A stretch of 64,000 nucleotides of DNA from an uncultured Bacteroidales bacterium (lineage in GTDB: Bacteria > Bacteroidota > Bacteroidia > Bacteroidales > CAIXZF01), in contig CAZSDK010000016.1 of NCBI GenBank assembly GCA_964605655.1, forward strand, positions 27,455 through 91,454. The letters run 5' to 3'. Below are positions 3 to 56,845 of this stretch, in pieces. Every line of letters begins with the position of its first letter. The first letter of the stretch is position 1. Under the pieces are notes generated by a model. It did no database searches, was not told where the DNA came from, and saw nothing but the letters and a program-made list of their open reading frames with translations. Made by a program: the position numbers and the translations under genes.

Positions 3-104
3 ACAGATATCGTCAGGCAGACCGTGGGTGATGTGAATCAGTATGCTGCCGGGGTGAGCCAGTCGGACGATATTACCGTGTTGGGACTAAGATACCGGCC
101 ATAG
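3..104 (+). CDS. C-terminal end of a SpoIIE/PP2C-family Ser/Thr phosphatase (partial, runs in from the window start)
   Basis: Frame 3 reads TDIVRQTVGDVNQYAAGVSQSDDITVLGLRYRP*; QSDDIT(V/L)L is the terminal motif of SpoIIE/RsbU phosphatases. Not in the ORF track. Confidence 0.75.
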   Translation, partial: TDIVRQTVGDVNQYAAGVSQSDDITVLGLRYRP

Positions 105-153
105 GAACTGCCCTTCAAACGGTAGTCCGGCCCTCACAACCCTGTTTGGTCTT

Positions 154-9105: not shown

Positions 9106-9111
9106 CACGCC

Positions 9112-9561: not shown

Positions 9562-9563
9562 TC

Positions 9564-11669: not shown

Positions 11670-11672
11670 AAA

Positions 11673-13151: not shown

Positions 13152-13153
13152 CC

Positions 13154-14407: not shown

Positions 14408-14430
14408 ATATAACACCCTAAAACAGGCAT

Positions 14431-14979
14431 ATGACATTAGATGCATTAGCATTACAAGGGAAGGGTCAGGTTTGCCAGCCTATGGCAGCGGCTCTCAGGC
14501 AAAGACTTAGTGATCTTCGCAATCCTTTGGTAAGGGAGATCCTAAGTGACTTTGTCAATACCGGCCACCGCCTGGAATTAGTGTCGACCATCCACCATGT
14601 TGACTATATCAACGACAGCAAGGCCAGCAACATCAATGCCACCTGGTTTGCGCTGGAGAGCATGAACCGCCCGGTAGTCTGGATTGCCGGTGGGCAGGAA
14701 GGATCCGGCAATTACACCCTGCTCACTGAACTGGTGAAGTCGAAAGTAAAAGTGCTGATCTGCCTGGGAGAACAAACAGAGGCCCTTTTCTCAACTTACC
14801 TCGGTGTTGTCCCAAATATTTATCGCGCCAAGAACATGGAGGAGGCTGTACAGATCGCCTTCCAGGTAAGCAAGGAAGGGGACACGGTACTGCTTTCTCC
14901 CGCCTGCCCGAGTTTCGATCGATATGAAAATTATGAAGAGAGAGGAAATCATTTCAGAGACATTGTATTAAGCCTTTAA
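14431..14979 (+). CDS. MurD C-terminal domain only (182-aa mini-MurD)
   Basis: HRLE, YINDSKASN, WIAGG and LLSPACPSFD.Y.NYEERG..F match MurD domain 3; there is no N-terminal or ATPase domain. Confidence 0.85.
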   Translation: MTLDALALQGKGQVCQPMAAALRQRLSDLRNPLVREILSDFVNTGHRLELVSTIHHVDYINDSKASNINATWFALESMNRPVVWIAGGQEGSGNYTLLTELVKSKVKVLICLGEQTEALFSTYLGVVPNIYRAKNMEEAVQIAFQVSKEGDTVLLSPACPSFDRYENYEERGNHFRDIVLSL

Positions 14980-14989
14980 TCAACGCGGT

Positions 14990-18619: not shown

Positions 18620-18634
18620 AAAAGATAACAAACC

Positions 18635-19447
18635 ATGAGCAAGTCCCTGATCAAGAAAATAGCGACCATCTGTTTCTGGATTGGCTTTTCAGCGGCGACG
18701 GTCGTCACGGTAGGCTTTGTGGAATCAGAACACAGCAAACTGAGATGCAAGGATGTTGACATTTCTTTAAATACGGCTGGCGAAAATTCCTTCCTTACCC
18801 AGGCCGAGGTGATGAAGACTATTGAGCAGCTGCTGGGCGACACGGTAGTCGGGAAGCCCATGAAGGAGATCAGTATCAGTCTGATCAGGTCACGCCTGGA
18901 GGAAAATCAGTATGTGGCCCATGCCACGGTCTATGCCACGGTCGACGGCATCCTCAAGGTGGAGATTTCCCAGAGATCGCCTATGGTCCGGGTACAAAAT
19001 GCCCTGGGAGAGTGCTTCTACCTTAGTGATGACGGCCGCATGATTCCTGTCAGCTTCCTGTACACCGCCCGTGTCCCTTTTGCCAATGGCCTGATCACCG
19101 AAAAATACGATGTTGCCAGAGACCTTGTACCCGTGATCGATGGTCCGCCCGAGATCAGCAACAGGATCACCACCCTTCAGAAGATCTATATGCTGGGCAA
19201 TGCCCTGCAGCAGTATCCCTTTCTCAAGGCACAGATCGAGCAGATCTTTGTCGACAGTGAGGGTGACATCGAACTTATCCCGCTGGCAGGTGAACATACG
19301 GTGATCCTTGGTAATGTGGACTACCTCACCGAAAAACTCGACAAGCTTACCGCCTTTTACCAATACGGGTTAAAACTGAAAGGGTACAATACATACAAGA
19401 GCATCAACATCAAATTCAAGAATCAAATTATCTGTTTAAAAAACTAA
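18635..19447 (+). CDS. ftsQ: Cell division protein FtsQ/DivIB
   Basis: N-terminal TM helix, POTRA-like region and C-terminal INIKFKNQIIC; canonical position. Confidence 0.85.
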   Translation: MSKSLIKKIATICFWIGFSAATVVTVGFVESEHSKLRCKDVDISLNTAGENSFLTQAEVMKTIEQLLGDTVVGKPMKEISISLIRSRLEENQYVAHATVYATVDGILKVEISQRSPMVRVQNALGECFYLSDDGRMIPVSFLYTARVPFANGLITEKYDVARDLVPVIDGPPEISNRITTLQKIYMLGNALQQYPFLKAQIEQIFVDSEGDIELIPLAGEHTVILGNVDYLTEKLDKLTAFYQYGLKLKGYNTYKSINIKFKNQIICLKN

Positions 19448-19453
19448 AACAAT

Positions 19454-20818
19454 ATGAGCATGGAATCTTCAGACATTATTGTCGGACTCGACATCGGTAC
19501 GACCAAAATTGCGGTCATTGTCGGCCGACTCAACGAAAACAACAAGATTGAAATTCTTGGCATGGGCAAATCAGACTCCATCGGTGTGAGAAGGGGTGTG
19601 GTTTCGAACATTGAAGACACGGTACGCTCTATCAAAACGGCCGTGGAAAACGCTGAGAAAAGTGCCAATGTGACGATCAGGAATGTATATGTAGGCATCG
19701 CCGGTCAGCACATCAAGAGCCTTCAGCATCGCGGAAGCCTGATCCGTAACAGCGGAGAAGAAGAGATCTGCGAGGAGGACATCGACCGTCTGCATGAGAA
19801 CATGTATAAGCTGGTGATGCCACCCGGTGAGGAAATCATACAGGTGATCGCCCAGGACTACATTATTGACGGAGAACAAGGTATCAAGCAACCCATCGGT
19901 ATCTGTGGGGTGTCACTCGAAGCCAACTTCCATATTATTGTAGGCCAGACCGCTGCAGTGAAGAACATTTACAAATGTGTTACCAAAGCAGGGCTGCAGG
20001 TCATCGGAATGATGCTGGAGCCCCTGTCCTCAGCAGCTGCAGTCCTGAGCGAGGAAGAAAAAGAAGCAGGTGTGGTTTTGGTCGATATCGGCGGAGGCAC
20101 TACTGACATCGCCATCTTCCAGGATTGCATCATCCGTCATACCGCGGTGATTCCTTTTGGAGGGGATGTCATCACCGATGATATCAGGGAAGGTTGCCAT
20201 ATCATTCGTAAACACGCTGAAGAACTGAAAATTAAGTTTGGAAGCTGCCTGGCAAGTGAGAACAAAGACGAGGAGATCGTGGCCATCAGGGGGCTTCGTG
20301 ACCGTCCAGCCCGCGAAATCTCACTAAAAACCCTTGCCTTGATCATCGAGGCCCGCATGGAAGAGATCATTCACTTCGTCAGGAATGAAATCAAAAACTC
20401 AGGCTACGAAAAGAAACTGATCGGTGGTATCGTTCTGACGGGGGGTGGGTCGATGATGAAACATATCTCACAGCTGACAGAATTTCAAACCGGCTACGAC
20501 ACCCGCATTGGTTACCCTAACGAACACCTTGGCAAAGGGGTATCGAACGAACTGGCCAATCCCATGTTTGCTACCGGTACCGGCCTGGTTTACCTGGCTG
20601 GAGAAAAATTGGCCAAAGAACTGCGCCTGAACACCCAGGAAGAGTTTGTAACCACCGATGCCGAGATCAAGGAACCCGACGCGGAATCCGGAGATGCCAC
20701 GAACGCTGGCGTATCCAAACCACCCAGGGAAAGACCCATTAAGGTCTTCAATATCGGGGAGAGACTCTTCAAGATTGTCACCGAGTTTTTTGAAGCCGAC
20801 GGCAAAAAACTTGCGTGA
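19454..20818 (+). CDS. ftsA: Cell division protein FtsA
   Basis: VGLDIGTTK, VDIGGGTTD, LTGGGS. Confidence 0.97.
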   Translation: MSMESSDIIVGLDIGTTKIAVIVGRLNENNKIEILGMGKSDSIGVRRGVVSNIEDTVRSIKTAVENAEKSANVTIRNVYVGIAGQHIKSLQHRGSLIRNSGEEEICEEDIDRLHENMYKLVMPPGEEIIQVIAQDYIIDGEQGIKQPIGICGVSLEANFHIIVGQTAAVKNIYKCVTKAGLQVIGMMLEPLSSAAAVLSEEEKEAGVVLVDIGGGTTDIAIFQDCIIRHTAVIPFGGDVITDDIREGCHIIRKHAEELKIKFGSCLASENKDEEIVAIRGLRDRPAREISLKTLALIIEARMEEIIHFVRNEIKNSGYEKKLIGGIVLTGGGSMMKHISQLTEFQTGYDTRIGYPNEHLGKGVSNELANPMFATGTGLVYLAGEKLAKELRLNTQEEFVTTDAEIKEPDAESGDATNAGVSKPPRERPIKVFNIGERLFKIVTEFFEADGKKLA

Positions 20819-20904
20819 CAACATATTAACAAACAGTTGAAAAATATTTTGAACTGGTCAGTCCATCCAAGCAATATAATTAGTTAATTTGAGGAGGAAA
20901 TAAT

Positions 20905-22686
20905 ATGACTTATTTAGAAAATCAAAATCATACGCCAAGCATGATCAGATTTGATTTACCAAAGATCGATTCATCCATTATCAAGGTTATTGGCGTTGGT
21001 GGAGGAGGAAGTAATGCGGTCAACCACATGTTCCGCCAGGGAATACAGGGTGTTGACTTCGTGGTGTGTAATACTGATTCTCAATCTCTTACTTTAAGTC
21101 CCATTGCCAGGAAGATACAACTGGGCTCCTCACTGACGGAAGGCCGGGGCGCCGGTTCCCTTCCTTCGGTCGGCAGAAATGCAGCATTGGAGAATATCGA
21201 GGACATCAGGAAGATGTTGGAAAACAGTACCAAGATGCTTTTCATCACGGCAGGAATGGGAGGAGGAACCGGTACGGGAGCAGCTCCGGTAATCGCCTCT
21301 GTTGCCAAAGAACTGAATATTCTTACCGTAGGCATCGTTACCATGCCTTTCAGCTTTGAAGGGATCAAAAGGAAAAAACAGGCGGAAGAAGGGATCAAAG
21401 AACTGAGAGAACACGTGGACAGCCTTCTGGTCATCTCCAATGACAAGCTGCGGGAACTTCACGGTGACCTCACCCTCTCTCAGGCATTTGGTAAAGCCGA
21501 TGATATCCTCACCATTGCCGCAAAAGGAATAGCGGAGATCATTACCGTTCCTGGTTATATTAATGTTGATTTTGAGGATGTTAAGACTGTGATGAAGGAC
21601 AGTGGCGTGGCTATTATGGGTTCCGGTACCGCAGAAGGCGAAGACAGGGCTCTTCATGCCGTGGAATCCGCCCTCACCTCTCCCCTGCTCAATGACAATA
21701 ATATTGACGGTGCCATCAACATCCTCCTGTATATCTCCTCCGGAACCATGGAAGTGACCATGGACGAAGTGACCATCATCACCGATTATATCCAGAGCAA
21801 AGCAGGACAGGATGCCGAGATCATCTGGGGCAACGGAAGAGATGAGAACCTGGGTGAAAAGATCAGCATCACCCTGGTAGCCACAGGCTTCGAAATCAAC
21901 GGTTCAGAAAAAAGGGCAAGACAGGCCATCGAAAACAAAGCCATCTTCGTTGGTACGGTCGGCGATGCCGTGGTGCCCGAAAAACCTACCTTCGGCAAAG
22001 ACAATACCATCGTCCCAGGTGTGCCCGAACCACAGGAAGAATTTGTTCTCAGTACAGAGCCCATCATCATGGACTTTACCCTGGAACCGAAAGAATCAGA
22101 GCCCGTTGTACCGGAGCACACCCCTCCTGCTGAAGAACCTCAGGACTTTCCATTCAATGAACGGCCCATCGTCTTTGATCTCTCTCCGGAAACCGAGTCA
22201 GAACCTCAGCCTGAGGCTATTTTTGAACCTGAACCAATGCCTGAGTTTGAGCTTGAACCTGAGCCGGAAGTTGAGCAGGTGCGTGAGCCTGAGCCTGAAC
22301 CATTTACAGGGTTTCAAGGGTTCAGCAGTTTCGAACCATCCTTCGAGTTAAAGGATGAGGAAACCCCTGACAACCACTTCTTTAATGAAGTCCCCATGGA
22401 AACAAACGCTGAACCGGTTCCGGAGCCCGTGGATGAGACCTCCTCCATCGACAGGAATCACCAGGACCGTATCAGCCGTCTGAGGGAACTCAGTCTGAGG
22501 CTTAAAGCCCCGGAAGTCATCGATAAGCTTGAAAGGGAACCGGCCTACCTCAGAAAACAAATGGAACTTTCCGAGCCCAAACATTCCTCCGAATCCGAAG
22601 TTTCTCAATTCACCCTTGCCGGTGATTCCAATGGAGGGATAGAACTCAAACAGAATAACTCTTTCCTTCACGATCAGCCTGACTGA
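20905..22686 (+). CDS. ftsZ: Cell division GTPase FtsZ with a long acidic linker
   Basis: GVGGGGSNAV, AGMGGGTGTG, NVDFEDV; Bacteroidota C-terminus EPAYLR...NSFLHDQPD. Confidence 0.98.
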   Translation: MTYLENQNHTPSMIRFDLPKIDSSIIKVIGVGGGGSNAVNHMFRQGIQGVDFVVCNTDSQSLTLSPIARKIQLGSSLTEGRGAGSLPSVGRNAALENIEDIRKMLENSTKMLFITAGMGGGTGTGAAPVIASVAKELNILTVGIVTMPFSFEGIKRKKQAEEGIKELREHVDSLLVISNDKLRELHGDLTLSQAFGKADDILTIAAKGIAEIITVPGYINVDFEDVKTVMKDSGVAIMGSGTAEGEDRALHAVESALTSPLLNDNNIDGAINILLYISSGTMEVTMDEVTIITDYIQSKAGQDAEIIWGNGRDENLGEKISITLVATGFEINGSEKRARQAIENKAIFVGTVGDAVVPEKPTFGKDNTIVPGVPEPQEEFVLSTEPIIMDFTLEPKESEPVVPEHTPPAEEPQDFPFNERPIVFDLSPETESEPQPEAIFEPEPMPEFELEPEPEVEQVREPEPEPFTGFQGFSSFEPSFELKDEETPDNHFFNEVPMETNAEPVPEPVDETSSIDRNHQDRISRLRELSLRLKAPEVIDKLEREPAYLRKQMELSEPKHSSESEVSQFTLAGDSNGGIELKQNNSFLHDQPD

Positions 22687-24403: not shown

Positions 24404-27400
24404 CTATGCTGTCACAGATCCACCGTGACAGTGTTTATATTTTTTACCACTGCCACAGGGGCAGGGATCGTTCCTTCCGACTTTCTTTTCAACGCGCACC
24501 GGCTGAGGGCGCTGGGGTTCTGAAGTGCGGTTCGGTGCAGCGACGTCATCACGACCTGTCTTCAGGTTACTCATATCGGTCTGCCTGGGAATCCTGGCCT
24601 CCTGAACCTTGTTGTTCTCCATACCCGGCACCACACCCTTCAGCAGAAAACTGCATATCTCCTTGTTGATCTTCTGGACCATGGTCTTGAACAGCTCAAA
24701 GGACTCGAATTTGTAAATGAGCAGTGGATCTTTCTGTTCATAGGTGGCATTCTGTACCGATTGTTTCAACTCGTCCATTTCCCTCAGATGCTCCTTCCAG
24801 GCATCATCGATCAGGGCGAGGTTCAGTCCCTTCTCGATGGCCAGGTTCACCTCCCGGCCTTTGTCGAGATAGGCCTTTTTCAGGTTGGCGATCACCTGCA
24901 GGGTTTTCAGACCGTCGGTGACAGGGATGGCAATATTCTCAAAATGAGTATTGTTCTCGTAAATATCCTGTATCAAAGGATAAACATTGGTAGCCAGTAT
25001 ATCCCGTTTGGTCTTGTAGAAGGAAGTGACATTCTGGAAAAGTTCTTCCGTCAGTTCCTTCTGGCTCCCGTTCAGAAATTCCTTCTCAGTAAAAGGTGTT
25101 TCAATAGCCATAGACCTCAATAACTCCAGGCGGAACCCGTCATAATCACCGCTGTCGGAATAGTCTCCCACGATCGCTTCACTCACATCAAAAAACAGGT
25201 TGGAAATATCAAGCGACAAACGTTCACCATACAGGGCATGTCTTCTCTTTTTATAGATGACCTCTCTCTGTGAGTTCATTACGTTGTCATACTCCAGCAG
25301 TCTTTTCCTGATGCCAAAGTTGTTCTCCTCCACTTTCCTCTGGGCTCTTTCGATGGATTTGGAGATCATAGAATGCTGGATCACCTCCCCTTCTTTCAAT
25401 CCAAGGCGGTCCATGACCCTGGCAATCCTTTCAGATCCAAACAGCCGCATCAGGTCATCTTCCAGGGAGACAAAAAACTGGGAGCTCCCCGGGTCACCCT
25501 GCCTGCCTGAACGTCCTCTGAGCTGCCGGTCTACCCTTCGTGACTCATGGCGTTCCGTGCCGATGATCGCCAAACCACCTGCATCCTTCACACCGGGACC
25601 CAGTTTTATGTCCGTTCCTCTACCAGCCATGTTGGTGGCTATGGTCACACTGCCCGGCAGACCGGCATGGGCGACGATCTCTGCTTCCTTGGCATGAAGC
25701 TTGGCATTCAACACGTTGTGCTTAATATTCTTCCTGACAAGCATACGGCTCAGCAATTCAGAGGTCTCAACAGAGGTGGTACCCACCAATACCGGCCTGC
25801 CCTTCTGTGTCAGGTCCACGACCTCGTCAATGACCGCATTGAACTTTTCCCGCTTCGTCTTATAGACCAGGTCCTCGCGGTCATCCCTGACAACAGGCCT
25901 GTTGGTCGGGATGACCACCACATCCAGCTTATAGATATCCCAGAACTCGCCGGCTTCCGTCTCTGCAGTACCGGTCATACCTGCCAGTTTCTTGTACATC
26001 CTGAAATAATTCTGAAGGGTGATGGTGGCATAGGTCTGGGTGGCTGCTTCCACCGTTACATTCTCCTTCGCTTCAATGGCCTGGTGCAGACCATCGGAAT
26101 ACCTTCTCCCTTCCAGGATACGCCCGGTCTGCTCATCCACGATCTTGATCTTGTTGTCCATGATCACGTATTCCACATCCTTCTCAAAGAGTGCATAAGC
26201 CCTCAGAAGTTGGTTCACCGTGTGAATACGCTCCGATTTAATGGAATAATCCCTGATGATCTCGGTTTTCTTCTCCAGCTTCTTCGCATCCGTGAGGTTC
26301 AATTTGTCGAGATCAGCCAGCTCGGCTCCTATGTCGGGGATGAGGTAGAATTTAGGATCCTCATAGGATTCCGTAATAAGATCGATCCCTTTTTCAGAAA
26401 TATCAATCGTATTGTTCTTTTCATCGATGACAAAAAACAACTCATCATCGATCAGGTGCATGTTTTTCGACTGTTCCGCCATATAGAAGTTTTCGGTCTT
26501 CTGCAACAGGGCCCTCATTCCAGGTTCACTGAGAAACTTGATGAGTGCCTTGTTCTTTGGAAGGCCACGGTGAGACCTGAGCAGATACTCCCCGCCCTTC
26601 TTCTCTTCCTCCGGCGTCAGGTTTTCTTTACCCAGGAGCGATTTTGCGTCGGCCAAAACCTTGGTTACCAGGTTCTTCTGCGCATTATACAGTTTGAGTA
26701 CCGGTGGCTTCAAGGCATCGAACTCCTGGTTATCACCTTTTGGAGTCGGACCAGAGATGATCAGAGGAGTACGTGCATCATCGATGAGGACAGAGTCCAC
26801 CTCGTCGACAATGGCATAGTTATGCACCCTTTGGACCAGTTCCTCAGGATTACGCGACATGTTATCACGCAGGTAATCAAATCCGAACTCGTTATTGGTA
26901 CCGAAGGTGACATCTGCCAGGTAAGCGTTTTTCCTTTCTTCTGAATTCGGCTCATGCCTGTCGATGCAATCGACCTTCAGGCCGTGGAACTCATAAAGGA
27001 CACCCATCCATTCCGAGTCTCTTTTGGCAAGGTAATCGTTCACCGTCACCACATGAACCCCCTTTCCAGGCAAGGCATTTAAAAAGACAGGCAAGGTTGC
27101 GACCAGCGTTTTCCCTTCCCCTGTCGCCATTTCAGCAATCTTCCCTTCATGAAGAACAATACCGCCGATCAGCTGGACATCGTAGTGAACCATGTCCCAA
27201 CGGATGGAATTCCCTCCTGCCATCCAGCTGGAATGGTATTTAGCCTTGTCCCCCTCAATGACCACGCTCGCCCTGGTGGCAGCCATATCCCTGTCCATCT
27301 GAGTTGCCGTCACCTCCACCCATTCGTTCTCAACGAACCTTTTGGCTGTTTCCTTCATCACGGCAAAAGCTTCCGGAAGGATCTTACCCAGCATCTCCTG

Positions 27401-27700
27401 GGTCTTTTCATACAGTCTTTTATCCAGACGGTCTATCTCAGTATAGATCCTTTCCTTTTCATGGGCATCCATTTCCGGGTCCTGCTCCATTTGCTCCCTG
27501 AGAGTAGCAATACTCTCTTCTTCCTCAGCTATATAATCCCAGATTCTCTTCCTGAATTCCTGGGTCATCGACCTGAGCTCATCATTACTCAACAGCTTGA
27601 TCTTCTCATAGGCAAGACGGATGTCATCTACCAGCGGATTCACCAGTTTCAGGTCCCGTTCCGATTTAGTGCCCAGAAATTGCTTAAAAAGTCCCAACAT
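24404..27700 (-). CDS. secA: Preprotein translocase ATPase SecA
   Basis: [41 protein letters not shown] motif [18 protein letters not shown]. Confidence 0.99.
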
Positions 27701-43380: not shown

Positions 43381-46300
43381 ATGAGACGGCTTTTTATTTT
43401 CGGTGCGTTGATCCTGCAGGCATTATCATTGCTTGCACAACCGGCTCCGTATTCCAACACGACCTGTGACTCAGCCACCCAGATCTGTTCCGGTCAGAAT
43501 TACGTCTATCCGGCCTGGTACAACAACCATCCCTCTGAAACAGGTCCTTATTATGGCTGTCTCAGTTCTCAACCTGACCCGGCCTGGTTTTATTTTGTGA
43601 TTGGGAATCCCGGTGATATTCATATTTATATGTTCTCAACTCCTAACAGAGATATCGACTTCATCTGCTGGGGCCCCTATGATTCCCTCTCTGAGGGCTG
43701 TGACGGCGGGTTGACACAGGCCAAGGTGATCGATTGCAGTTATTCCAGCTCATGGAATGAGACGTGTGACGTCCCCAACGGGATAGCGGGAAAATACTAT
43801 GTCTTATTGATCACCAACTTCTCAAAGCTGGAATGCACGGTCTCGTTATCTCAAAGCTACGGCATAGGGACCATGGTGTGCATCCAACCCCCTGCCATCA
43901 GCAGCAACAGCCCGCTCTGTGCCGGACAGACCATTCAGCTGACTGCCGGAAGCGTGAGCGGAGGCACCTATCAGTGGACAGGTCCCAACGGATTTTCATC
44001 CAGCCTCCAGAACCCGGTGATACCCGATGCGACCACTTCACATTCAGGTGTTTACACACTGGTCGTTTCAGTGGGCAGCGTGGTACTCAGTCCGGTCACT
44101 CTTTCCATTACCGTCAACCCGGCACCTGCCTTTCAAATCGTTCAGGATACTTCTATATGCTCCGGATCAACCATCGACCTGGGTGGGCCTTCGATGCCAG
44201 GATATAATTATACCTGGACCTCAAGTCCCCCCGGGTTCTCCTCTTCCCTGTCAAATCCAGCGGTTGCTCCTACTGTAAATACAAAATACTACCTCTCTGT
44301 CACCTCTGACCAGGGTTGTAACGGGGCTGACAGTGTTACGGTCCAGGTGAAACCTGTTCCTTATGCAAGTGTAGTACCTAACAGTACTGTATGCCAAGGT
44401 ACTTCAGTGCCCCTGGGAGGTCCACCCAACCCTTCCAATACCTATGCCTGGTCCTCAAACCCTCCGGGATTCACCAGCACCTCCTCCAACCCCACTGTAA
44501 CAGCCAATATCACTACCACCTACACTTTGACCGTCACTAACAATCAGGGATGTTCCAGGACCTACCAGGTAGTGCTTACCGTCAACCCGCTGCCTGCAGC
44601 CAATACGGGTCCTGCACAAAGTGGGTGCATTGGAACCGTCTTCGTTTTGGGAAGTTCCGCCATAACCGGGAACACTTACACCTGGACCTCCGACCCTACA
44701 GGGTTCACTTCGGCACTATCCAATCCGACCGTTACACCCATTATAACGACCACCTTCACACTGACTGAAACCATCACTGCCACTTCCTGTTCCAAAACAA
44801 ACACGGTCCTCATCACCATCCATCCGATGCCTGCCGCCATTACCGGACCGTCAGTGACACTTTGCCAGGGCAGTAGTGCAACCCTCGGAACAACAGCTGT
44901 TCCCGGCAATACCTACAGCTGGACTTCCACACCAAGCGGTTTTACTTCATCTTTGGCCAACCCAACTGTGACCCCTTCAGCTACCACTGTTTATCATTTA
45001 ACCGAAACAACATCCTTCGGATGCACAGCCACCAACAGTGTGACGGTGACTGTAAACCCTCTGCCCCAGGCGTATACCGGACCAAACACCCCGGTCTGCA
45101 AAGGCAGCTTTGTCACCCTGGGAGGAGCTCCGGTGCCTGGCAACACCTACCAGTGGTCTTCTATCCCTTCCGGTTTCTCATCTGCAATCTCCAATCCTCA
45201 GGTCTACCCAAATGTGAACACTACCTATACGCTGGTTGAGACCATATCATCGACAAATTGTTCTGCCTCGAATAGTGTCACTGTCACTGTTAACCCTCTT
45301 CCTGTCACACAAGTCATCCCGAACTCCTCCATCTGCGCAGGCACATCTATCTTCATTGGCGGTCCCAGCACTCCCGGGAACACCTACCAATGGACCTCCA
45401 TACCCTATGGATTTTTATCTGCCTCAGCGAATCCGCAAGTGAGTCCCCTGATCACCACTACGTATTTCCTTACACAAACCATTTCCGCAACAGGCTGCAC
45501 GAAACTTGCATCAGTAACCATCACTGTCAACCCGACTCCCGCTGCCTATACCGGACCCGATCAGACCATCTGTGCCGGGAGTCAGGTCACTATTGGCGGC
45601 CCACCGGTTTCGGGGAACGGATATTCATGGACGTCAAACCCTTCAGGATTTACTTCTCAGGTATCTAATCCATTAGTATCGCCTTCTGTTACAACCACAT
45701 ACACTTTAGTTGAGACCCATCTATCCAGCGGGTGCTTCGCTTCCCATTTTGTAAAAATAACGATCACCCCCCTGCCGCAGGTTTCTTTGTCTCCTTTCAC
45801 TCCCTTATGTAAAGATGCCCCTCCTCTTACACTATCAGGGGGGAATCCACCGGGGGGGACCTATTCAGGTACAGGAGTCACCTCTAATGTCTTTTACCCG
45901 TCAGTGGTGGGCCCGGGAAACTATCTCATCACCTATACCCTCATAGATCCTCAGGGTTGCAGCGGAACTGCGTTTCAATCGATACTGGTTCTAAATAAAC
46001 CCCGCATTTCAGGCACCATCAACTACCTGAACGGGGCCAATACCCCTCTCGACAGCACCAGGATCAGGATTCTGAGCCAGACCAATGTTCCGCTGGACTC
46101 AGTGAACACCAACAATACAGGCAATTATGCTTTCAACTGTCTCAACCCGGGGACCTACAAGATTCGAAGCTCCTGTAAGAAAAAATGGGGAGGAGGGAAT
46201 TCCCTCGATGCATTGCTCATTGCCCGTTATTCCGTTGGACTGATCAGTTTCAACTCCATGCAGATGAAAGCTGCCGATGTCAATGCCAGCGGATCCATCA

Positions 46301-46551
46301 ACGCAGGAGATTCCTACCTGGTCATGAGAAGATTTGCAGGCATGGTTACTACTTTCCCTGCAGGGGACTGGTGCTATTCAACCCATGACACAGTCATCGT
46401 CAACACCTCTGATATCATCGTTCAGGTGAAAGCGCTCTGTATAGGCGATGTCAACGGTTCCTATTCTCCTTACACAGCAAATAAAAGTTCTCTGAGTCCA
46501 TTCCTGTTCAGAAATTCTTGGATATTGGGATATTTGAAGAAGAATGACTGA
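43381..46551 (+). CDS. Secreted Cys-rich Ig-like repeat protein with C-terminal dockerin-like module
   Basis: Signal peptide (LLAQ), N-terminal CDSATQIC...DIDFICWGP domain, nine Ig-like units, NSLDALL...ADVNASGSINAGD...GDVNGSY. Confidence 0.8.
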   Translation: MRRLFIFGALILQALSLLAQPAPYSNTTCDSATQICSGQNYVYPAWYNNHPSETGPYYGCLSSQPDPAWFYFVIGNPGDIHIYMFSTPNRDIDFICWGPYDSLSEGCDGGLTQAKVIDCSYSSSWNETCDVPNGIAGKYYVLLITNFSKLECTVSLSQSYGIGTMVCIQPPAISSNSPLCAGQTIQLTAGSVSGGTYQWTGPNGFSSSLQNPVIPDATTSHSGVYTLVVSVGSVVLSPVTLSITVNPAPAFQIVQDTSICSGSTIDLGGPSMPGYNYTWTSSPPGFSSSLSNPAVAPTVNTKYYLSVTSDQGCNGADSVTVQVKPVPYASVVPNSTVCQGTSVPLGGPPNPSNTYAWSSNPPGFTSTSSNPTVTANITTTYTLTVTNNQGCSRTYQVVLTVNPLPAANTGPAQSGCIGTVFVLGSSAITGNTYTWTSDPTGFTSALSNPTVTPIITTTFTLTETITATSCSKTNTVLITIHPMPAAITGPSVTLCQGSSATLGTTAVPGNTYSWTSTPSGFTSSLANPTVTPSATTVYHLTETTSFGCTATNSVTVTVNPLPQAYTGPNTPVCKGSFVTLGGAPVPGNTYQWSSIPSGFSSAISNPQVYPNVNTTYTLVETISSTNCSASNSVTVTVNPLPVTQVIPNSSICAGTSIFIGGPSTPGNTYQWTSIPYGFLSASANPQVSPLITTTYFLTQTISATGCTKLASVTITVNPTPAAYTGPDQTICAGSQVTIGGPPVSGNGYSWTSNPSGFTSQVSNPLVSPSVTTTYTLVETHLSSGCFASHFVKITITPLPQVSLSPFTPLCKDAPPLTLSGGNPPGGTYSGTGVTSNVFYPSVVGPGNYLITYTLIDPQGCSGTAFQSILVLNKPRISGTINYLNGANTPLDSTRIRILSQTNVPLDSVNTNNTGNYAFNCLNPGTYKIRSSCKKKWGGGNSLDALLIARYSVGLISFNSMQMKAADVNASGSINAGDSYLVMRRFAGMVTTFPAGDWCYSTHDTVIVNTSDIIVQVKALCIGDVNGSYSPYTANKSSLSPFLFRNSWILGYLKKND
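44125..45774 (+). repeat. Seven tandem repeats of about 78-79 aa (P...C.G...LG....G.TY.W.S.P.GF.S..SNP.V.P..TT.Y.L)
   Basis: Visible in the translation; 1650 nt divided by 7 gives about 236 nt per unit. Confidence 0.9.
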
Positions 46552-46580
46552 GTCTTGCACCCCAACACTCACTTAGATTA

Positions 46581-47255
46581 ATGATTACAATGATGAAAGG
46601 AAATAAGATCCCTGCAATACTGTTGTTAAACCTCATGCTCCTGACAGGAATCTCAGGTTGTTACTCTCAGAATACCATTGCATCACCAGTGCCTGCCGAT
46701 CCTTTCATGGACAGGGTCCTTAAAGAGAGAAATCAGAAAGATGCAGAATTCAGGGACCCCAAAAAATCTCCTCTTCCTTCAGATGAAATATCTGATTTTC
46801 AAGGTCTCCAGTATTTCTCTTACCAGTCAAAGTACCGTGTCACTGCCAGTCTGGAGAGAATAGATCATCCTGCCGTTATCAAAATGAAAACCACCACGGA
46901 GAGAAGACCGGAGTACCTGACCTATGCTTACGCTCATTTTTTTCTGGATGGTGTTGAGTACAAACTGATGATCTACCAGCCTGTTGATTTCATGAACCAG
47001 AAAGGATTTGAAAAATACCTTTTTATGCCTTTCACGGATGCTACTTCAGGAATCCAGACATACGGGGGAGGAAGATTTATGGAGCTCACCATGGTAGAGA
47101 CAGACACCATCACTCTTGATTTCAACACGGCATTTAATCCGTATTGTGCTTATAACCACAAATATTCGTGCCCTGTTCCTCCCGAAGAGAACGATCTTCC
47201 TGTTCCCGTTCCTGTCGGCGAACTACCGTATAAACCGATAGGCCGGGAACATTGA
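46581..47255 (+). CDS. DUF1684 domain protein
   Basis: F.DPKKSPL, LFMPFTDATSG..TYGGGRF, LDFNTAFNPYCAY...YSCPVPP.EN. Confidence 0.92.
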   Translation: MITMMKGNKIPAILLLNLMLLTGISGCYSQNTIASPVPADPFMDRVLKERNQKDAEFRDPKKSPLPSDEISDFQGLQYFSYQSKYRVTASLERIDHPAVIKMKTTTERRPEYLTYAYAHFFLDGVEYKLMIYQPVDFMNQKGFEKYLFMPFTDATSGIQTYGGGRFMELTMVETDTITLDFNTAFNPYCAYNHKYSCPVPPEENDLPVPVPVGELPYKPIGREH

Positions 47256-47339
47256 CCATGCGGAGGCAACCTTCCGGTTTTCTATACATCTACCTTTTAA
47301 GTATTTTTGTAAGAGTAGTCTTCAAAAAACAAATAGGAA

Positions 47340-50300
47340 GTGATACATCGCTACTATTTATCAATTTTATTGATACTGTGCAGCATAGCCACTGCTTTCG
47401 CACAAATCAGTCTTACTTCTTCTACCGAGCAGAACACTGAATGCAATGGTTTTGGATGCAACTACAGTGGTCCGAGCATACTCATCAATGAGGTGATGAT
47501 AAGGCCTGTTTCGGGCAATGGATCAATTTATGGCTGGGAACCGGGAAGTTCTGCGTCTGCCAGGCAGGGTGAATGGATAGAGTTGTACAACCCTGATATC
47601 TGCCAGTCGGTGGATGTTTCCTGCTACTTCCTGGGCAATTGTGCCCACGACGGCTCCCCATTACAGTATTACGGCGCAGGATATGAGATCCCCCAGGGGA
47701 CGATCGTCCCTCCCCGGGGTTTTGTTATTGTCAGAGGGGTGAATGCGCCTGCTGTGCCTCCTGCTCTGCTGATCCAAAACGGTGGAAAAACGGTAGAACT
47801 TGTTATCAGCAACACTTCAGCCGTATGCCTGGATGGCGGATATCGCATGTGGTTCCCCGATGCCGGGGGGTGGTTCGCTTTTTATGATGATGAAGGAATC
47901 CCCCAGGATGCCATTTCCTGGTACAATCCCATGGCGCTGGAACTGAGTGACAGTCCGTGCAACCCTACCGGAAGCTGTCCCTATTCCGGAACGCTTTCCT
48001 CCTATAATAGTATCCCTTCGAACAGAAAAACCTATATTTACAGCAGTACCCCCTCTCTGGGACAGAGTGTCAGACGTATTCCCGACGGAGGTCCCTGGAT
48101 GGTTAATACCACAGCCAGCGCCACCTATGGGAACTGTAACTCGACTTGTATCCCTCCGCCGGTCATCACCTGTAATGGCACCGCCACCGTGTCAGCCAGC
48201 GGAGGAACTCCGCCATACAGCTATGAATGGTCCGACGGGCAGGCTCAGTCCACGCCCACTGCCACAGGTCTTTGTGGTGGATTGTATTGTGTGACCGTAA
48301 CCGATGCCCTTAACGATTCCAGTACCATCTGTGTCAGTGTTCCTGACTATAAACCGGAGGTATCGATGAGCTCTCTGTCTGATGTCTGTATCAGCGCCAG
48401 TCCGTTCCCTCTGACGGGTGGTTCACCACCCGGAGGGAAGTACCTGGGTGAAGGTATCGTTAACAATATCTTTAGTCCTTCCCTGGCTGGACCGGGAACC
48501 CATTGGATTCGCTATCGCTATGCAAACCAGGATTCATGCTGGAGTATGGACAGCACCCAGATTACGGTACACAGTCTTCCTACAGTGAGTCTGCCAGCCT
48601 TTCAGCCCCTCTGCTTTAACAGTGCGCCTCTGTCGCTCAACATGGCTGAGCCTTCTGGTGGCATCTACAGCGGTATCGGGGTCACAGGGAACTACTTCTT
48701 CCCGGCAGTGGCAGGCGTCGGAACGTATGCCATCACCTATACCTTTATTGACAATAATTCCTGCCAGAATACTGCTGTACAAAATATTACCGTGACGCCC
48801 ATACCCATGGCTTCGGCCGGTCTTGATCAGACTATCTGTCCGGGACACACTGCCGAACTTGGGGAACCTGCTGTCCCCGGGAACTCCTATTCCTGGACCT
48901 CACAGCCACCGGGTTTCACCTCCACCCTTTCAGACCCGGTTGTTTCACCCCTTGTTACCACCCAATACACCCTGACGGAGGTCATTAATGCTACCCAATG
49001 CAGTCAGACTCATTCAGTAACCGTTCAGGTGACAGCAGGACCCGTTGTCAACGCCGGCAGTGACCAGGGTATTTGTCCGGGAGGAACGGCAACCATTGGA
49101 TCTTCACCCATCGCCGGGTACACGTATTCCTGGTCATCGATTCCTGCGGGATTCTCCTCCACAGTTGCCAATCCAAGTGTGAGTCCTGCCGTCACCACCG
49201 TATACCAGGTCACTGCCACTACGGTTGACGGCTGTATCGGAACCAGCCAGGTGACCGTCACGGTCCACCCTGTTCCACAAGCCATAACTGGCAATAATAC
49301 CGGAATCTGTTCCGGTTCTTCCACAACGATCGGCATTCCGGCTGTCGCAGGCAACACCTACCTTTGGTCGTCCCTTCCTGCCGGGTTTTCGAGTACTCTT
49401 GCCAATCCTACGGTATCACCCAGTGTGACCACCAGTTATTTTCTGACCGTCACCAACGCTTTTGGCTGTTCCGGCGCCAGCCAGGTCACGGTCAGCATTC
49501 TACCCCTGCCTGCAGCTTATACCGGCCCGGGACAGAGCCTCTGTTCAGGGGGGCATGCCACCATCGGCGGACCTCCGGTTTCAGGCAACACCTATTCCTG
49601 GATATCCGCTCCCCCAGGGTTCCAGTCACAGGTTTCCAATCCCGTTGTCTACCCATCTGCAACGACCGTTTATACCCTCACCGAAACCAACCTCGCCACC
49701 GGCTGCAGCAATTCCCATTCTGTCACTATCGTTGTCAACCCTTTGCCCCAGGTAAGCCTCCAACCTTTTACACCTGTCTGCAAAAATGCAAGTCCCTTCC
49801 TGCTCTCCGGCGGGAATCCGGCCGGTGGAACCTATTCGGGGCCGGGCGTGTCCAATAATGTTTTTAATCCGACTTCGCTCAACCCGGGCTTGTACCTCAT
49901 CAGCTACATTTATTTCAATACATACGGATGCATGGGAGTAGCCTATCAACAGATTCAGGTACTCAACAAACCCAGGATCTCCGGCACGCTGGTCTACATG
50001 AACACCGCCTCAACACCACTCGACAGTTCAAAAATCAGGCTTTTTACCCAACAGAATGTTTTGGTCGATTCCGCTACTACCGGCAATAACGGGAGTTTTG
50101 CCATGAACTGCCTCAATCCCGGGAACTATAAACTACGGACCACTGTTCCCAAAAAGTGGGGAGGAGGGAATTCCATCGACGCCCTGCTCATTGCACGTTT
50201 TTCAGTCGGCATGATCAGCCTTACACCAATGCAACAGATGGTAGCTGATGTGAATGCCAGTGGCAGCCTCAATTCAGGGGACTCCTACCTCATCATGCGA

Positions 50301-50561
50301 AGGTACGTGGGAATCACCACCAGTTTTCCTTTCGGCGATTGGTATGCAGAACCTGTTGACACCCTGCTTATTACCACCAACGATCTGACGATTGCCCTTC
50401 ATGCCGCCTGTTTCGGGGATGTCAATTTTTCTTATGTGCCTTTTACCGGCATGAAATCAGGCATAGGGTCAATCAAACCCTGGATGTCCGCTACTCTCCA
50501 GGATATCCTTTTAACCAGGCTCCCCGGATCTGAAAAAAAGGGACTAATTCCCAGGCAGTAG
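47340..50561 (+). CDS. Secreted lamin-tail-domain/SprB/Ig-repeat protein with C-terminal dockerin-like module
   Basis: Signal peptide (AFAQ), ILINEVM...GEWIELYNP (LTD), SGGTPPYSYEWSDG (SprB-like), Ig units, NSIDALL...ADVNASGSLNSGD...GDVNFSY. Confidence 0.8.
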   Translation: MIHRYYLSILLILCSIATAFAQISLTSSTEQNTECNGFGCNYSGPSILINEVMIRPVSGNGSIYGWEPGSSASARQGEWIELYNPDICQSVDVSCYFLGNCAHDGSPLQYYGAGYEIPQGTIVPPRGFVIVRGVNAPAVPPALLIQNGGKTVELVISNTSAVCLDGGYRMWFPDAGGWFAFYDDEGIPQDAISWYNPMALELSDSPCNPTGSCPYSGTLSSYNSIPSNRKTYIYSSTPSLGQSVRRIPDGGPWMVNTTASATYGNCNSTCIPPPVITCNGTATVSASGGTPPYSYEWSDGQAQSTPTATGLCGGLYCVTVTDALNDSSTICVSVPDYKPEVSMSSLSDVCISASPFPLTGGSPPGGKYLGEGIVNNIFSPSLAGPGTHWIRYRYANQDSCWSMDSTQITVHSLPTVSLPAFQPLCFNSAPLSLNMAEPSGGIYSGIGVTGNYFFPAVAGVGTYAITYTFIDNNSCQNTAVQNITVTPIPMASAGLDQTICPGHTAELGEPAVPGNSYSWTSQPPGFTSTLSDPVVSPLVTTQYTLTEVINATQCSQTHSVTVQVTAGPVVNAGSDQGICPGGTATIGSSPIAGYTYSWSSIPAGFSSTVANPSVSPAVTTVYQVTATTVDGCIGTSQVTVTVHPVPQAITGNNTGICSGSSTTIGIPAVAGNTYLWSSLPAGFSSTLANPTVSPSVTTSYFLTVTNAFGCSGASQVTVSILPLPAAYTGPGQSLCSGGHATIGGPPVSGNTYSWISAPPGFQSQVSNPVVYPSATTVYTLTETNLATGCSNSHSVTIVVNPLPQVSLQPFTPVCKNASPFLLSGGNPAGGTYSGPGVSNNVFNPTSLNPGLYLISYIYFNTYGCMGVAYQQIQVLNKPRISGTLVYMNTASTPLDSSKIRLFTQQNVLVDSATTGNNGSFAMNCLNPGNYKLRTTVPKKWGGGNSIDALLIARFSVGMISLTPMQQMVADVNASGSLNSGDSYLIMRRYVGITTSFPFGDWYAEPVDTLLITTNDLTIALHAACFGDVNFSYVPFTGMKSGIGSIKPWMSATLQDILLTRLPGSEKKGLIPRQ
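48804..49745 (+). repeat. Four tandem repeats of about 78-79 aa, same type as in 44125-45774
   Basis: PMASAG..., PVVNAG..., PQAITG... and PAAYTG..., each containing YSW.S.P.GF.S..S/ANP.V.P. Confidence 0.9.
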
Positions 50562-54030: not shown

Positions 54031-55392
54031 CTATTCCACCTTCATACACCGTACCGAATAGCCGTAATCCATCTCCTGTACATCCTGGAATATCCACATC
54101 GAAACGTAATTCAGATAGCGGCTTACCGCCCAGGTATTGGCATAATAATCAGAGCTCCAGAATTTGGCATGGGTCCTCAGGTGGTAAAAATCGCCTGTGG
54201 TATGTCGGAAACCTGCCGGCAGTCCGGTGAAACCGCTTGTATTGATGGCACAGGTATTGGGTGGTTTGAAAAAAACTGTGTCCGGGACCTTCATCTTACA
54301 CCCTATGTCGCTTCCTGTCCAGTCGAAGGTGGTACAATCCACCGTGCTGTCGAGGGCAAGCTCCATGTTGCACCATTCCTGGTGCGAAGGCAGGTGAAAC
54401 CCGTCTGGACAAATCCCTTTGGTTGAAGGCGTCTGTGAATACTGCATCATCTCGTTCCACTGGTATAATCCGCCGTAGACCTCACAGTAGGCAGGATCGT
54501 CATCGTAACAGTACTTTTCGATCACCCCGTTGTTATGGGCATCGCCGGTTCCCGGTATCATCGTGCCCCGGTTGAGGTTGTCCCGCATCCAACACTGGTT
54601 TCCAATATGCACCGTATTGTAGATCCGGCCGTCGCATAAGATGTAAGGTTTTGAATGACAAGGGTATCCCTGATGAAATAAAAAGGTGTAATCCTTGCTT
54701 TGGTGCGGATTGTCGGCGAAAGCCGCCGAATCGCCCTCACTGTAACCCTGGCAGTACAGAATGTCACCAAAAGTGAAGGTGAACAGGCTTCCAGCCGAGA
54801 CTTTAAAGGGTTCCTGGACCTCAGGTGTGGCACTGCTTTCTATGAGGCTTACACAGGCTGTGCCCTGTGATTTACTGCAGTTCAGTGCTTTTAAGGTGAG
54901 GCAAAGGTTCTGCAGGCAAACCCTTAACAAAACCATCCTTTCGTTTCCGGGCTCCAGGAGAAAACGGTGGGTCCCCGCCGGAAGAAACATACGCTCCCTG
55001 TACAAGCTCCTCCCCATCTGGTCCGTCATGCTGAGCTCCACCTCACCGCCTGCCGGAACACTCACCCTGAATTCAGCATTTCCCGGTGAGGGGTTGGGAA
55101 AGGGTTCGGTAAGGGCAAACGACCCTGCAAGGCCAGTCTCCTCACTGATACCCACATGTTCCAGCCATAGGACTGTATCGGGCCAGTACAGCACCGTGTC
55201 GGCATCGCTGCTCAGGTTTACCACACGGATGCTGTCCAGCACGCGGTGGAGCCCCGGCTCCTTCCCCGTGAAGGTAAAGACAGCCTCCTGACCCGGGGCT
55301 GTTTCATTGGACCAGCAGAAAAGGAGCAGTAAAATCCAGCATAAATGAAAACGATCAGACATCAGCCGCAAATCATTTCTAATGAATACCAA
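54031..55392 (-). CDS. FISUMP (Fib_succ_major) domain protein with an internal T9SS-CTD-like domain
   Basis: YNTVHIGNQCWM..NL, YGGLYQW.E, GICP.GFHLPS..EW, SGFTGLPAG.R, FWSS, GYSVRC; FPNP motif near the N-terminus; true start may be 55362. Confidence 0.88.
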   Translation of the reverse strand: MVFIRNDLRLMSDRFHLCWILLLLFCWSNETAPGQEAVFTFTGKEPGLHRVLDSIRVVNLSSDADTVLYWPDTVLWLEHVGISEETGLAGSFALTEPFPNPSPGNAEFRVSVPAGGEVELSMTDQMGRSLYRERMFLPAGTHRFLLEPGNERMVLLRVCLQNLCLTLKALNCSKSQGTACVSLIESSATPEVQEPFKVSAGSLFTFTFGDILYCQGYSEGDSAAFADNPHQSKDYTFLFHQGYPCHSKPYILCDGRIYNTVHIGNQCWMRDNLNRGTMIPGTGDAHNNGVIEKYCYDDDPAYCEVYGGLYQWNEMMQYSQTPSTKGICPDGFHLPSHQEWCNMELALDSTVDCTTFDWTGSDIGCKMKVPDTVFFKPPNTCAINTSGFTGLPAGFRHTTGDFYHLRTHAKFWSSDYYANTWAVSRYLNYVSMWIFQDVQEMDYGYSVRCMKVE

Positions 55393-55621: not shown

Positions 55622-56845
55622 GTGATTGCAATAAAGAACCATTGCTTTTGGAGGATAAATATCCTCATTCTGTTCTATTTACTTAGCGTACAACTGCTTT
55701 CTTCACAGAACTTAGTTCTGAATCCAAGTTTCGAAGACACTCTTCAATGTCCAAACGGCGGGAGTGCTACACTTGGAGATGCTCGATACTGGTTCTCTCC
55801 AATCTATCCTGATTGTACGAGTGAATTATTCCACTCCTGCGATGACCTGTGGCGTGTGTACGAGCATCAAAAACCCCATTCAGGAAATGCATTTGCAGGA
55901 TTCTCAATATTTGACGGGGGATTTTGGAGGGAGTACGCAGAAGTATCATTGATAAAACCTTTAACTTCAGGCAAGAAATACAATGTCAACTTTTATATTC
56001 GATCATTATATTTTACGGCTTCAACAGTTGATGCAATCCAGGTATATTTTTCAAAAGATTCTCTGCTGGTTCCTTTCGTAGGAAATATTAATGTTTTTCC
56101 TCAAATTTCAAATAATAATGGTATTATCCAGGATTCCCTTAACTGGGTCAGGATAACAGGTTCATTCATTTCACATGGAGAAGAACTATTCATGACTGTT
56201 GGAAATTTCAAGCCCTCAGATAGCACACTCTTTATCAGCTATCTTCCGCTTTTTCTTGGAATAGGCCCTGCATATTATCTCTTCGATGATTTCTCTGTAT
56301 ATGAATGTGATGCGGTGAGCTATACGGCCGATGCCGGCCCCGGCACCTCCATCTGCAGAGGAGAAAAGGTGCAGCTGGGCACTACCGATTTCCCGGACTA
56401 TTGGTACGAATGGTCAGAACCGGGTGGGAAAATATTTTCCCGTCAGGGAAGACCCTGGGTCAGTCCCACGGAAACCACCACCTACCACCTGCTCCAGAAG
56501 GACTTCAAGTTTGATGAGTCCTATTCCAGTGTGACCATCATCGTGGAAGACTGTGATAAAGACCTGGTCATTCCCAATGTGATCACTCCCAACGGTGACG
56601 GCGCCAACGACAGGCTGGTGATCCTCAACGAGAGCCGGCTTCAATATACCCTCCGCATCTTCGATCGCTGGGGAACGGAGGTGTTCACCGGCACGGAGGA
56701 ATCCTGCTGGGAGGGCACCCGGAGCAAGGGAACGGAATATATGTCAGAACAAGCCGGTCCCGGAGTTTACTATTATTACATCGATGCCGTCACCCGCCTT
56801 GGAGAAAAACGAAGGTACACCGGGGCTGTTCAGGTGATCAGGTAG
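55622..56845 (+). CDS. Secreted protein with T9SS type-B (CHU_C, gliding-motility-associated) C-terminal domain
   Basis: QNLVLNPSFE N-terminus; IPNVITPNGDGAND...IFDRWG.EVF...GVYYY; TATATTTG promoter at 55489-55496. Confidence 0.88.
   Translation: MIAIKNHCFWRINILILFYLLSVQLLSSQNLVLNPSFEDTLQCPNGGSATLGDARYWFSPIYPDCTSELFHSCDDLWRVYEHQKPHSGNAFAGFSIFDGGFWREYAEVSLIKPLTSGKKYNVNFYIRSLYFTASTVDAIQVYFSKDSLLVPFVGNINVFPQISNNNGIIQDSLNWVRITGSFISHGEELFMTVGNFKPSDSTLFISYLPLFLGIGPAYYLFDDFSVYECDAVSYTADAGPGTSICRGEKVQLGTTDFPDYWYEWSEPGGKIFSRQGRPWVSPTETTTYHLLQKDFKFDESYSSVTIIVEDCDKDLVIPNVITPNGDGANDRLVILNESRLQYTLRIFDRWGTEVFTGTEESCWEGTRSKGTEYMSEQAGPGVYYYYIDAVTRLGEKRRYTGAVQVIR

Follow-up and report, generated by a model that had tools for sequence, protein, structure and literature searches.

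The 64-kb stretch of contig CAZSDK010000016.1 from an uncultured Bacteroidales bacterium, referred to as the window, contained three genes, g1, g2 and g3, that together make up the feature at 43381-50561. The g1 and g3 proteins end in a dockerin built into a beta-sandwich, and this module was traced to a large, barely described cohesin-dockerin surface-assembly network in Bacteroidota and Ignavibacteriota that bear a secretion system of type IX (T9SS). Two classes of module-bearing proteins were defined in this analysis. Class A carries a cassette of sandwich-dockerin, cohesin and T9SS C-terminal domain (CTD), and class B is dockerin-terminal. g1 and g3 were assigned to class B and would represent the cargo-only class of the network. 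After Sec export, their dockerin would bind the cohesin of a CTD-anchored partner and tether the adhesin with its immunoglobulin (Ig)-like repeats to the cell surface, a reading given a somewhat better than even chance.

The C-terminal module, its classes and their putative cohesin partners

Twenty-two modules were aligned, and a structure was predicted with AlphaFold2 (AF2) for g1 residues 872-1039. The model was confident, with a predicted local distance difference test (pLDDT) of 92 and a predicted template modelling (pTM) score of 0.82. It comprised five beta-strands, three helices at model positions 70-80, 88-94 and 104-114, and three more strands. In Foldseek searches, the strands matched SdrD-B, UafA, CnaB2 and carboxypeptidase-D-regulatory (transthyretin-like) sandwiches, with alignments covering the entire model. 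The helices matched the solved dockerin 4uyq_B with a template modelling (TM) score of 0.71, a root-mean-square deviation of 1.8 Å and 36% identity. The module sequence retrieved only dockerins from the PDB, among them 4uyp_B and 5nrk_B. As the strands match sandwich folds and the helices a dockerin, the apparent dockerin plus extension is one unit, in which a loop of a CnaB/transthyretin-like beta-sandwich takes up the dockerin as an insertion. The closing strands are formed by the conserved ending GDW...C.GDVNGSY.P, which reads ...CIGDVNGSYSP in g1.

The dockerin fold anticipated by the original prediction was thus present in the g1 model, with three helices. The Dockerin_1 search that it had proposed was positive for one of the two proteins: g1 reached 28.0 bits at residues 940-985 (PF00404; gathering threshold 22.9), and g3 remained below the threshold with 15.6 bits. 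The module family profile matched the g3 module with an E-value of 1e-59. Profile E-values down to this level, together with the confident fold and the Foldseek match to a solved dockerin, place the match far beyond chance. The first loop of the g1 dockerin is degenerate (KKWGGGNSLDAL) and the second Ca loop is canonical (ADVNASGSINAGD). Compared with the two-loop pattern DxNxDGxxxxxD, the second loop matched (DVNASGSINAGD); the first reads WGGGNSLD and keeps only positions 9 and 12. The module is a dockerin by score and fold, with one atypical loop. In the dockerins of the g1 orthogroup (window 46300-46330; L002, P0009 and P0014), helix 3 reads D[AS]YL[IV].RR[FW], compared with DALLI.RRF in the family consensus, and this variant may mark a separate cohesin-specificity group.

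A word-indexed protein search with the 192-aa C-terminus returned one relative only, and an exhaustive profile search was needed to recover the family. This search yielded 4,490 protein clusters with E<1e-3, 1,508 of them with E<1e-10. No NCBIfam model covering the cassette was found. Class counts in proteins were taken from the best 150 representatives. The chain ran on for about 200-245 aa past the module in 83 of the 150. About 50 ended at the module or at most 40 residues beyond it, 14 exactly at ...GDVNGSYxP, with normal N-terminal signal peptides. Judged from these sequences, about 55-60% of the members would carry a cohesin and a type-A CTD, and about a third would stop at the last strand of the sandwich.

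The extension of class A consists of a cohesin followed by a type-A T9SS CTD. Its profile matched the cohesins 2xdh (E 2.7e-8), 6kg8 and NagJ in the PDB. Pfam Cohesin was matched in 8 of 21 extensions, and Por_Secre_tail was above threshold in every full-length class A protein scanned. An AF2 model of the whole cassette, made for one database class A protein, reached a pLDDT of 89.8 and a pTM of 0.86, with Foldseek TM scores of 0.6-0.7 to solved cohesins. Class A heads included GH18, S8 protease, CUB, BNR, PKD and fn3 domains; no cellulase was seen among the heads of the family. The g1 and g3 proteins carry the sandwich-dockerin ending in C.GDVNGSY.P without cohesin and Por_Secre_tail, and their heads are non-catalytic. 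The idea of a display of adhesins rather than enzymes therefore fits these two proteins but not the family, given its GH18, S8 protease, CUB, BNR and PKD heads. Modules of both classes agree in consensus and in conserved residues and intermingle phylogenetically. For 34 of 88 class B modules the nearest neighbour was a class A module, and the cohesin-CTD half was evidently gained and lost often. A systematic sequence difference between the dockerins of the two classes was sought by comparing the modules and none was found.

Several family members showed other arrangements. The metagenome protein P0003 (5,359 aa) matched the module at residues 81-176 and again near its C-terminus, where a cohesin and CTD follow. 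It also contains internal cohesin-like stretches and appears to have dockerins at both ends. In P0004, P0007, P0010, P0011, P0020 and P0075, the profile matched 6-10 times in tandem, each time only with its dockerin part (positions ~5-65); these are multi-dockerin repeat proteins without the closing strands. In L065 (827 aa, LacPavin metagenome-assembled genome, MAG), some 300 aa come after the module, with neither cohesin nor CTD among them. A sequence of this kind, putatively linked to L065, continues ...QVCGDTFTDLRNGKKYPTVQIGNQCWFAKNLN and may be a Fib_succ_major domain.

In species-representative genomes, 543 module loci were confirmed in Bacteroidota and Ignavibacteriota MAGs. Locus-level analyses covered the best 77 of the 543 loci, from about 28 MAGs, affiliated with Bacteroidales, Bacteroidota, Lentimicrobiaceae, Ignavibacteriales and Melioribacteraceae. 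The source genome was absent from the species-representative set, in which the best match was 51%. Classes A and B occurred together in single MAGs, with 8A/3B, 6A/6B, 6A/4B, 4A/3B and 3A/2B, and the class B stops fell inside contigs. CTD-less dockerin proteins, which the original prediction had proposed to count in related MAGs, form a recurrent class there alongside cohesin-CTD partners. Cohesin proteins with a T9SS CTD, which it had suggested looking for, were abundant in the closest genomes, as single-cohesin anchors and as scaffoldins with 3-10 cohesins. The 20-kb flanks of the loci contained cohesin-only proteins, anchors of about 250 aa composed of signal peptide, cohesin and CTD, and proteins with 3, 4, 6 and 10 cohesins; several of the multi-cohesin proteins terminate in a CTD. 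Pfam supported the anchors with 33 bits for Cohesin and 35 bits for Por_Secre_tail, and a scaffoldin with five Cohesin matches (135 bits) and Por_Secre_tail. Scaffoldins or anchors bearing cohesins were found in the MAGs LacPavin, ELA540, RA.bin97 and co22_40. ELA540 holds a class B orthologue of g1 and a 10-cohesin scaffoldin in the same MAG. In RA.bin97, a class B gene adjoins a small gene for a signal-cohesin-CTD anchor (L049:5069-6991, minus strand), resembling a class A cassette split in two.

The ELA540 scaffoldin (L006:2-11161) combines 10 cohesins with a dockerin module and a CTD in more than 3,720 aa, its N-terminus lying beyond the end of the locus. A Melioribacteraceae protein of 2,582 aa (L056:3486-11231) carries 6 cohesins and a CTD, with 135 bits for Pfam Cohesin. 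A conserved three-gene cluster was present in the Bacteroidales MAGs of L009, L010, L016, L034 and L036, for example at L010:32-5887, ~8500-11160 and 11167-11925. It encodes a CARDB-repeat protein of about 1,950 aa with a cohesin right after the signal peptide, a class A protein of about 884 aa and a 253-aa anchor with cohesin and Por_Secre_tail. This cluster looks like a dedicated cohesin-dockerin operon.

Gene layout, authentic stops and syntenic relatives

The three genes were co-oriented as originally predicted, with 29 nt between g1 and g2 and 84 nt between g2 and g3, in agreement with the coordinates of the open reading frames (ORFs). The features are listed in Table 1. Signal peptides were judged by eye from the sequence. 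They were of the Sec type, ...SLLA/QPAPY in g1 and ...TAFA/QISL in g3, with cleavage read as MRRLFIFGALILQALSLLA/Q and MIHRYYLSILLILCSIATAFA/Q. Gln at position +1 in both proteins fits the 'Q-rule' of Bacteroidota. The N-terminus of g2 is of the lipoprotein type (...LTGISG/C). The g1 head contains 10 Cys within its first 180 residues and matched no family in Pfam, and the stalk behind it consists of eight stretches of Ig_7 ('CHU_C-associated Ig'). In the g3 head, a SprB repeat was above threshold (33.8 bits vs 28) and a lamin-tail match was below it (22-25 bits vs 34.3). The different heads, Ig stalks, shared dockerin-like module and short tails (26 and 39 aa) that had been described were all found again; among the details of the heads, the Cys-rich region and the SprB repeat stood and the lamin tail was seen only as a sub-threshold match. 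The g1 and g3 proteins share 46% identity over 790 aa, and their C-terminal modules are about 56-60% identical.

Table 1. Features of the g1-g3 locus and one neighbouring gene (window positions unless residues are given).
Feature	Position	Strand	Remarks
g1	43381..46551	+	1056 aa; 'class B' dockerin-terminal adhesin-like protein
g1 signal peptide	residues 1-19		
g1 Cys-rich head	residues ~20-172		
g1 Ig_7 repeat stalk	residues ~175-870		
g1 C-terminal module	45994..46470	+	AF2, Foldseek and profile matches
g1 dockerin insert	46180..46359	+	Dockerin_1 28 bits vs 22.9; PDB dockerins 4uyp_B, 5nrk_B; helices at 70-114 of the model
g1 tail	46471..46548	+	26 aa; non-conserved; low model confidence
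g2	46581..47255	+	224 aa; DUF1684 (PF07920, E 6e-44); lipoprotein
g3	47340..50561	+	1073 aa; GTG start; g1 paralogue
g3 C-terminal beta-sandwich and dockerin module	49965..50441	+	dockerin part 50151-50333
g3 tail	50442..50558	+	39 aa; after the module
Neighbour with CHU_C type-B T9SS CTD	55622..56845	+	62.5 bits vs 27; outside the feature

Neither a type-A (Por_Secre_tail/TIGR04183) nor a type-B (CHU_C/TIGR04131) CTD was detected in the g1 and g3 proteins with Pfam, NCBIfam and a family-specific CTD/cohesin hidden Markov model (HMM). With the same HMM, no CTD or cohesin remnant was found near the two genes in six frames of the whole window. A six-frame search located the module only in g1 and g3 within the window. 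A frameshifted CTD downstream was ruled out as well, since g2 starts 29 nt after g1, and g3, at its stop, shares 18 nt with the 3' end of a convergent GH38 gene. The absence of type-A, type-B and frameshifted CTDs was thus confirmed. Contigs covering the 3' ends of g1 and g3 in four public metagenome runs, which belong to a wastewater study (2020) and a sediment study (2025), showed 0 differences, indicating that the stops are real. An assembly or sequencing error behind them was ruled out by this identity. Programmed readthrough or frameshifting at class B stops was rejected because a cohesin-CTD ORF lay directly behind the class B gene in only 1 of 38 cases (L049), where it formed a separate gene with its own signal peptide. 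On sequence grounds, g1 and g3 do not count as T9SS cargo as defined by the CTD. Their non-conserved tails lie where class A relatives have the linker between dockerin and cohesin, and look like linker remnants.

A 36-nt stretch of the g3 head (ECNGFGCNY..., window 47472-47507) recurred with 3 mismatches in a second contig, followed by divergence, in all four runs; the second contig measured 3,798 bp in X1. A paralogous or related g3 head is apparently present elsewhere in the same communities.

Synteny was found with three relatives. The gene order in the window was M20, FAD-binding, EamA, YfhO(-), g1, DUF1684, g3 and GH38(-). LacPavin (L002) showed YfhO(-), the g1 orthologue, DUF1684 and GH38(-), and ELA540 (L003) showed M20 ..., a g1-like gene (527 aa), DUF1684 and GH38(-). 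In Ja_bin-4767 (L033), a molybdopterin dehydrogenase gene was followed by a g1-like gene, PD40/OmpA and DUF1684. The orthologues in L002 and L033 belong to class A (Por_Secre_tail 31 and 29.5 bits) and that in L003 belongs to class B. g1 shared 55.5% identity with the L002 orthologue over residues 1-1037, colinear to the module end, and the flanking genes 44-53%. This indicates that g1 evolves like its neighbours and lacks only the last 227 residues. No counterpart of g3 was found in the three syntenic relatives, suggesting an extra copy in the source genome. The orthogroup defined by the g1 head has nine members, seven of class B and two of class A; the possibility that the orthologues all carry a CTD and that g1 and g3 are recent truncations was not borne out, as seven of the nine lack cohesin and CTD. 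With g1 conserved like its neighbours and g3 an old paralogue with the same ending, the shared ending is no recent truncation. The proposal that the dockerin replaces the CTD had to be abandoned. The common cassette joins sandwich-dockerin, cohesin and CTD; g1 and g3 lack its second half, which the g1 orthologues keep in two relatives (L002 and L033) and lack in the third.

The window further contained a complete dcw cluster (PBP, MurE, MraY, FtsW, MurG, MurC, FtsA and FtsZ) and SecA, at 9564-22686 and 24404-27700, which confirms a chromosomal and not a mobile context. The neighbouring protein with a type-B CTD (Table 1) identifies the organism as a T9SS-bearing member of Bacteroidota. A Fib_succ_major protein (105 bits) is encoded at 54031-55392 on the minus strand. 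Its residues 93-150 matched the CTD-start part of the cohesin and CTD tail HMM of the family (E 5e-6). This match suggests that the protein has an internal beta domain of CTD-like/FlgD-Ig-like type. A 550-aa ORF at 154-1806 (+) had no Pfam match at E<=1e-5.

Proposed docking in trans and alternative explanations

Docking in trans on CTD-anchored cohesins was the best reading of these data. Class A proteins would be exported and fixed to the surface by the T9SS, with their cohesin beside the membrane. g1 and g3 would have lost, or never had, the cohesin-CTD half. Their dockerin would bind in a Ca2+-dependent manner to a cassette protein, a small cohesin-CTD anchor or a multi-cohesin scaffoldin, and the adhesin would thereby be held non-covalently on the surface. 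The outer membrane would be crossed by co-export with the partner or by another path. The anatomy, the fold and the family architectures are established, as are the joint occurrence of both classes and free cohesins in related MAGs and the orthology to genes with cohesin and CTD; cohesin binding, a partner in the source genome, the surface location and the outer-membrane route are what we infer.

Several points weigh against docking in trans. All family members are known from MAG sequences alone. The degenerate first Ca loop (WGGxNxxDAL) is family-wide, so that the binding properties may differ from those of classical dockerins. The cohesins of class A may already be taken in cis and be unavailable to class B, because the dockerin adjoins its own cohesin and the cassette was modelled as rigid (pTM 0.86). 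No cohesin was detected in the 64-kb window in six frames with the family-specific HMM. To our knowledge, no route is recognised for CTD-less soluble proteins over the outer membrane of Bacteroidota. The T9SS exports folded proteins and needs a folded CTD (PMC9251779), which makes co-export with a cohesin-CTD partner conceivable, though it is without precedent. CTD-less dockerin proteins might bind a partner cohesin in the periplasm and pass the type IX translocon as a folded complex, building a self-assembling coat in which the dockerin-cohesin-CTD proteins are scaffold and cargo at once. Such a mechanism is rather unlikely; if true, it would be the first hitchhiking export described for the T9SS.

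The main alternatives concern the ending itself and the role of the insert. The terminal sandwich-dockerin or the tail could be a cryptic secretion signal recognised by the T9SS or another exporter, with the dockerin acting later or never. A folded beta-sandwich forms the exact end of class B proteins, and non-canonical T9SS CTDs that escape HMMs exist, such as that of F. johnsoniae ChiA. The need of the T9SS for a folded C-terminal domain (PMC9251779) also speaks for such a signal. However, the ending showed no similarity to type-A or type-B CTD models and its best Foldseek matches were CnaB, SdrD-B and transthyretin folds, not T9SS CTDs. The same sandwich is internal in class A alongside a canonical CTD, and the tails are not conserved, leaving a cryptic signal quite unlikely. 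It is likewise improbable that the insert serves the sandwich as a structural element stabilised by Ca2+ or as a binding element for ligands or glycans, with the class A cohesin as a cis partner only and class B binding nothing through it. The degenerate first loop, the rigid model of the cis cassette (pTM 0.86) and the existence of non-cellulosomal dockerins with other roles (Peer et al. 2009, as cited in PMC8542988) would agree with this. Multi-cohesin scaffoldins and dockerin-less cohesin anchors in the same MAGs speak against it, since they make sense only with partners in trans, as do the adjacent class B and anchor genes in L049. Both helices also retain N[SA]xDAL, a symmetric signature of dockerins that bind cohesins.

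Gene decay would make g1 and g3 former class A genes that suffered a deletion of cohesin and CTD, whose mislocalised periplasmic products are on their way to loss. The positional orthologues in L002 and L033 keep cohesin and CTD, and the tails resemble linker remnants. Against this, the ORFs are intact over 1056 and 1073 codons, g1 matches its neighbours in conservation, and g3 is an old paralogue (46% identity) with the same ending. Class B accounts for 7 of the 9 proteins in the orthogroup and roughly one third of the family, many proteins stopping exactly at the domain boundary with all invariant module residues kept. With identical sequences in four samples from two studies, decay was regarded as a poor explanation. 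The part of DUF1684 in a three-gene system with the two flanking dockerin proteins, as the title of the original prediction implied, was rejected. The 29- and 84-nt gaps on one strand and the presence of DUF1684 near the g1 orthologue in three relatives had favoured it. Of 77 foreign loci, only 3 had DUF1684 near a module gene; these 3 share the one syntenic site and have variable intervening genes, which points to an incidental neighbour and not a component. A PD40/OmpA gene intervenes in L033, g3 is absent from all three relatives, and such a system is extremely improbable.

Relation to known systems and meaning of the network

The module resembles the clostridial type I cohesin-dockerin pairs (PDB 1ohz, 2vn5, 4uyp and 6kgf) in its dockerin fold with duplicated loop-helix repeats and in the jelly-roll cohesin. 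Cargo with C-terminal dockerins, multi-cohesin scaffoldins and anchoring cohesins are likewise common to both. In contrast to the clostridial cellulosome, the hosts have an outer membrane and the anchor is a T9SS CTD, not SLH or sortase. The dockerin, with a degenerate first Ca loop, is inserted in a beta-sandwich, and most family members hold dockerin and cohesin in one chain. The cargo is adhesin-like, with no cellulases seen, and g1 and g3 bear no polysaccharide-degrading enzyme. In type II X-dockerins (e.g. 4wi0), the dockerin is also structurally coupled to an Ig-like beta module, but the modules are consecutive, whereas the dockerin described here lies between sandwich strands. The best sequence and structure matches of the family cohesin were non-cellulosomal modules of A. 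fulgidus (2xdh) and C. perfringens (NagJ/GH84C cohesin, 2jh2 and 2w1n), which serve general protein-protein assembly and not cellulose degradation. Those modules have different hosts and partners and are without a link to the T9SS. The T9SS adhesins of Bacteroidota (SprB/CHU-type with Ig_7 and CHU_C, and type-A Por_Secre_tail cargo) share with g1 and g3 the Sec signal with Gln at +1, huge Ig-like stalks, the SprB repeat and Ig_7. The orthologues in L002 and L033 end in Por_Secre_tail, as such cargo does, whereas g1 and g3 lack any recognised CTD type.

Cohesin-dockerin assembly has been regarded as essentially a trait of Firmicutes and their cellulosomes. Dockerins in rumen Bacteroidetes and non-cellulosomal modules were already known (PMC6487960), and a 2024 genomic survey of cellulosome-displaying bacteria named Bacteroidota in its reference list only. 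A neighbouring phylum supplies a published precedent for the concept: from MAGs of Cloacimonadota, a cellulosome-like complex was proposed in silico for Ca. Stygibacter (Williams et al. 2021, PMC8542988). Its predicted components are signal-peptide proteins with C-terminal dockerins (GH18, S8 and C25) and a large tandem-cohesin scaffoldin with a T9SS-type CTD for surface attachment. The novelty assumed at first therefore does not extend to the combination of dockerin cargo and CTD-bearing cohesin scaffoldin. The inserted-dockerin sandwich, the dockerin-cohesin-CTD cassette, the two classes and the Ig-repeat adhesin cargo do not appear in the available part of the description of the Ca. Stygibacter complex, which also concerns a different phylum. 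No published description of the cassette, of its two classes or of an expansion in Bacteroidota and Ignavibacteriota was found in the literature.

Uncultured Bacteroidales, Lentimicrobiaceae and Ignavibacteriales of wastewater, sediments and lakes show the same assembly logic on a large scale, in a T9SS-anchored form with a new inserted-dockerin module. In annotation, the absence of a CTD from such proteins need not be taken as an artefact of truncation. The family would also be a source of new orthogonal cohesin-dockerin pairs for protein engineering. The finding raises the testable question of how CTD-less proteins cross the outer membrane. Docking, if true, would explain how numerous large 'orphan' proteins that lack a sorting domain are displayed on the surface.

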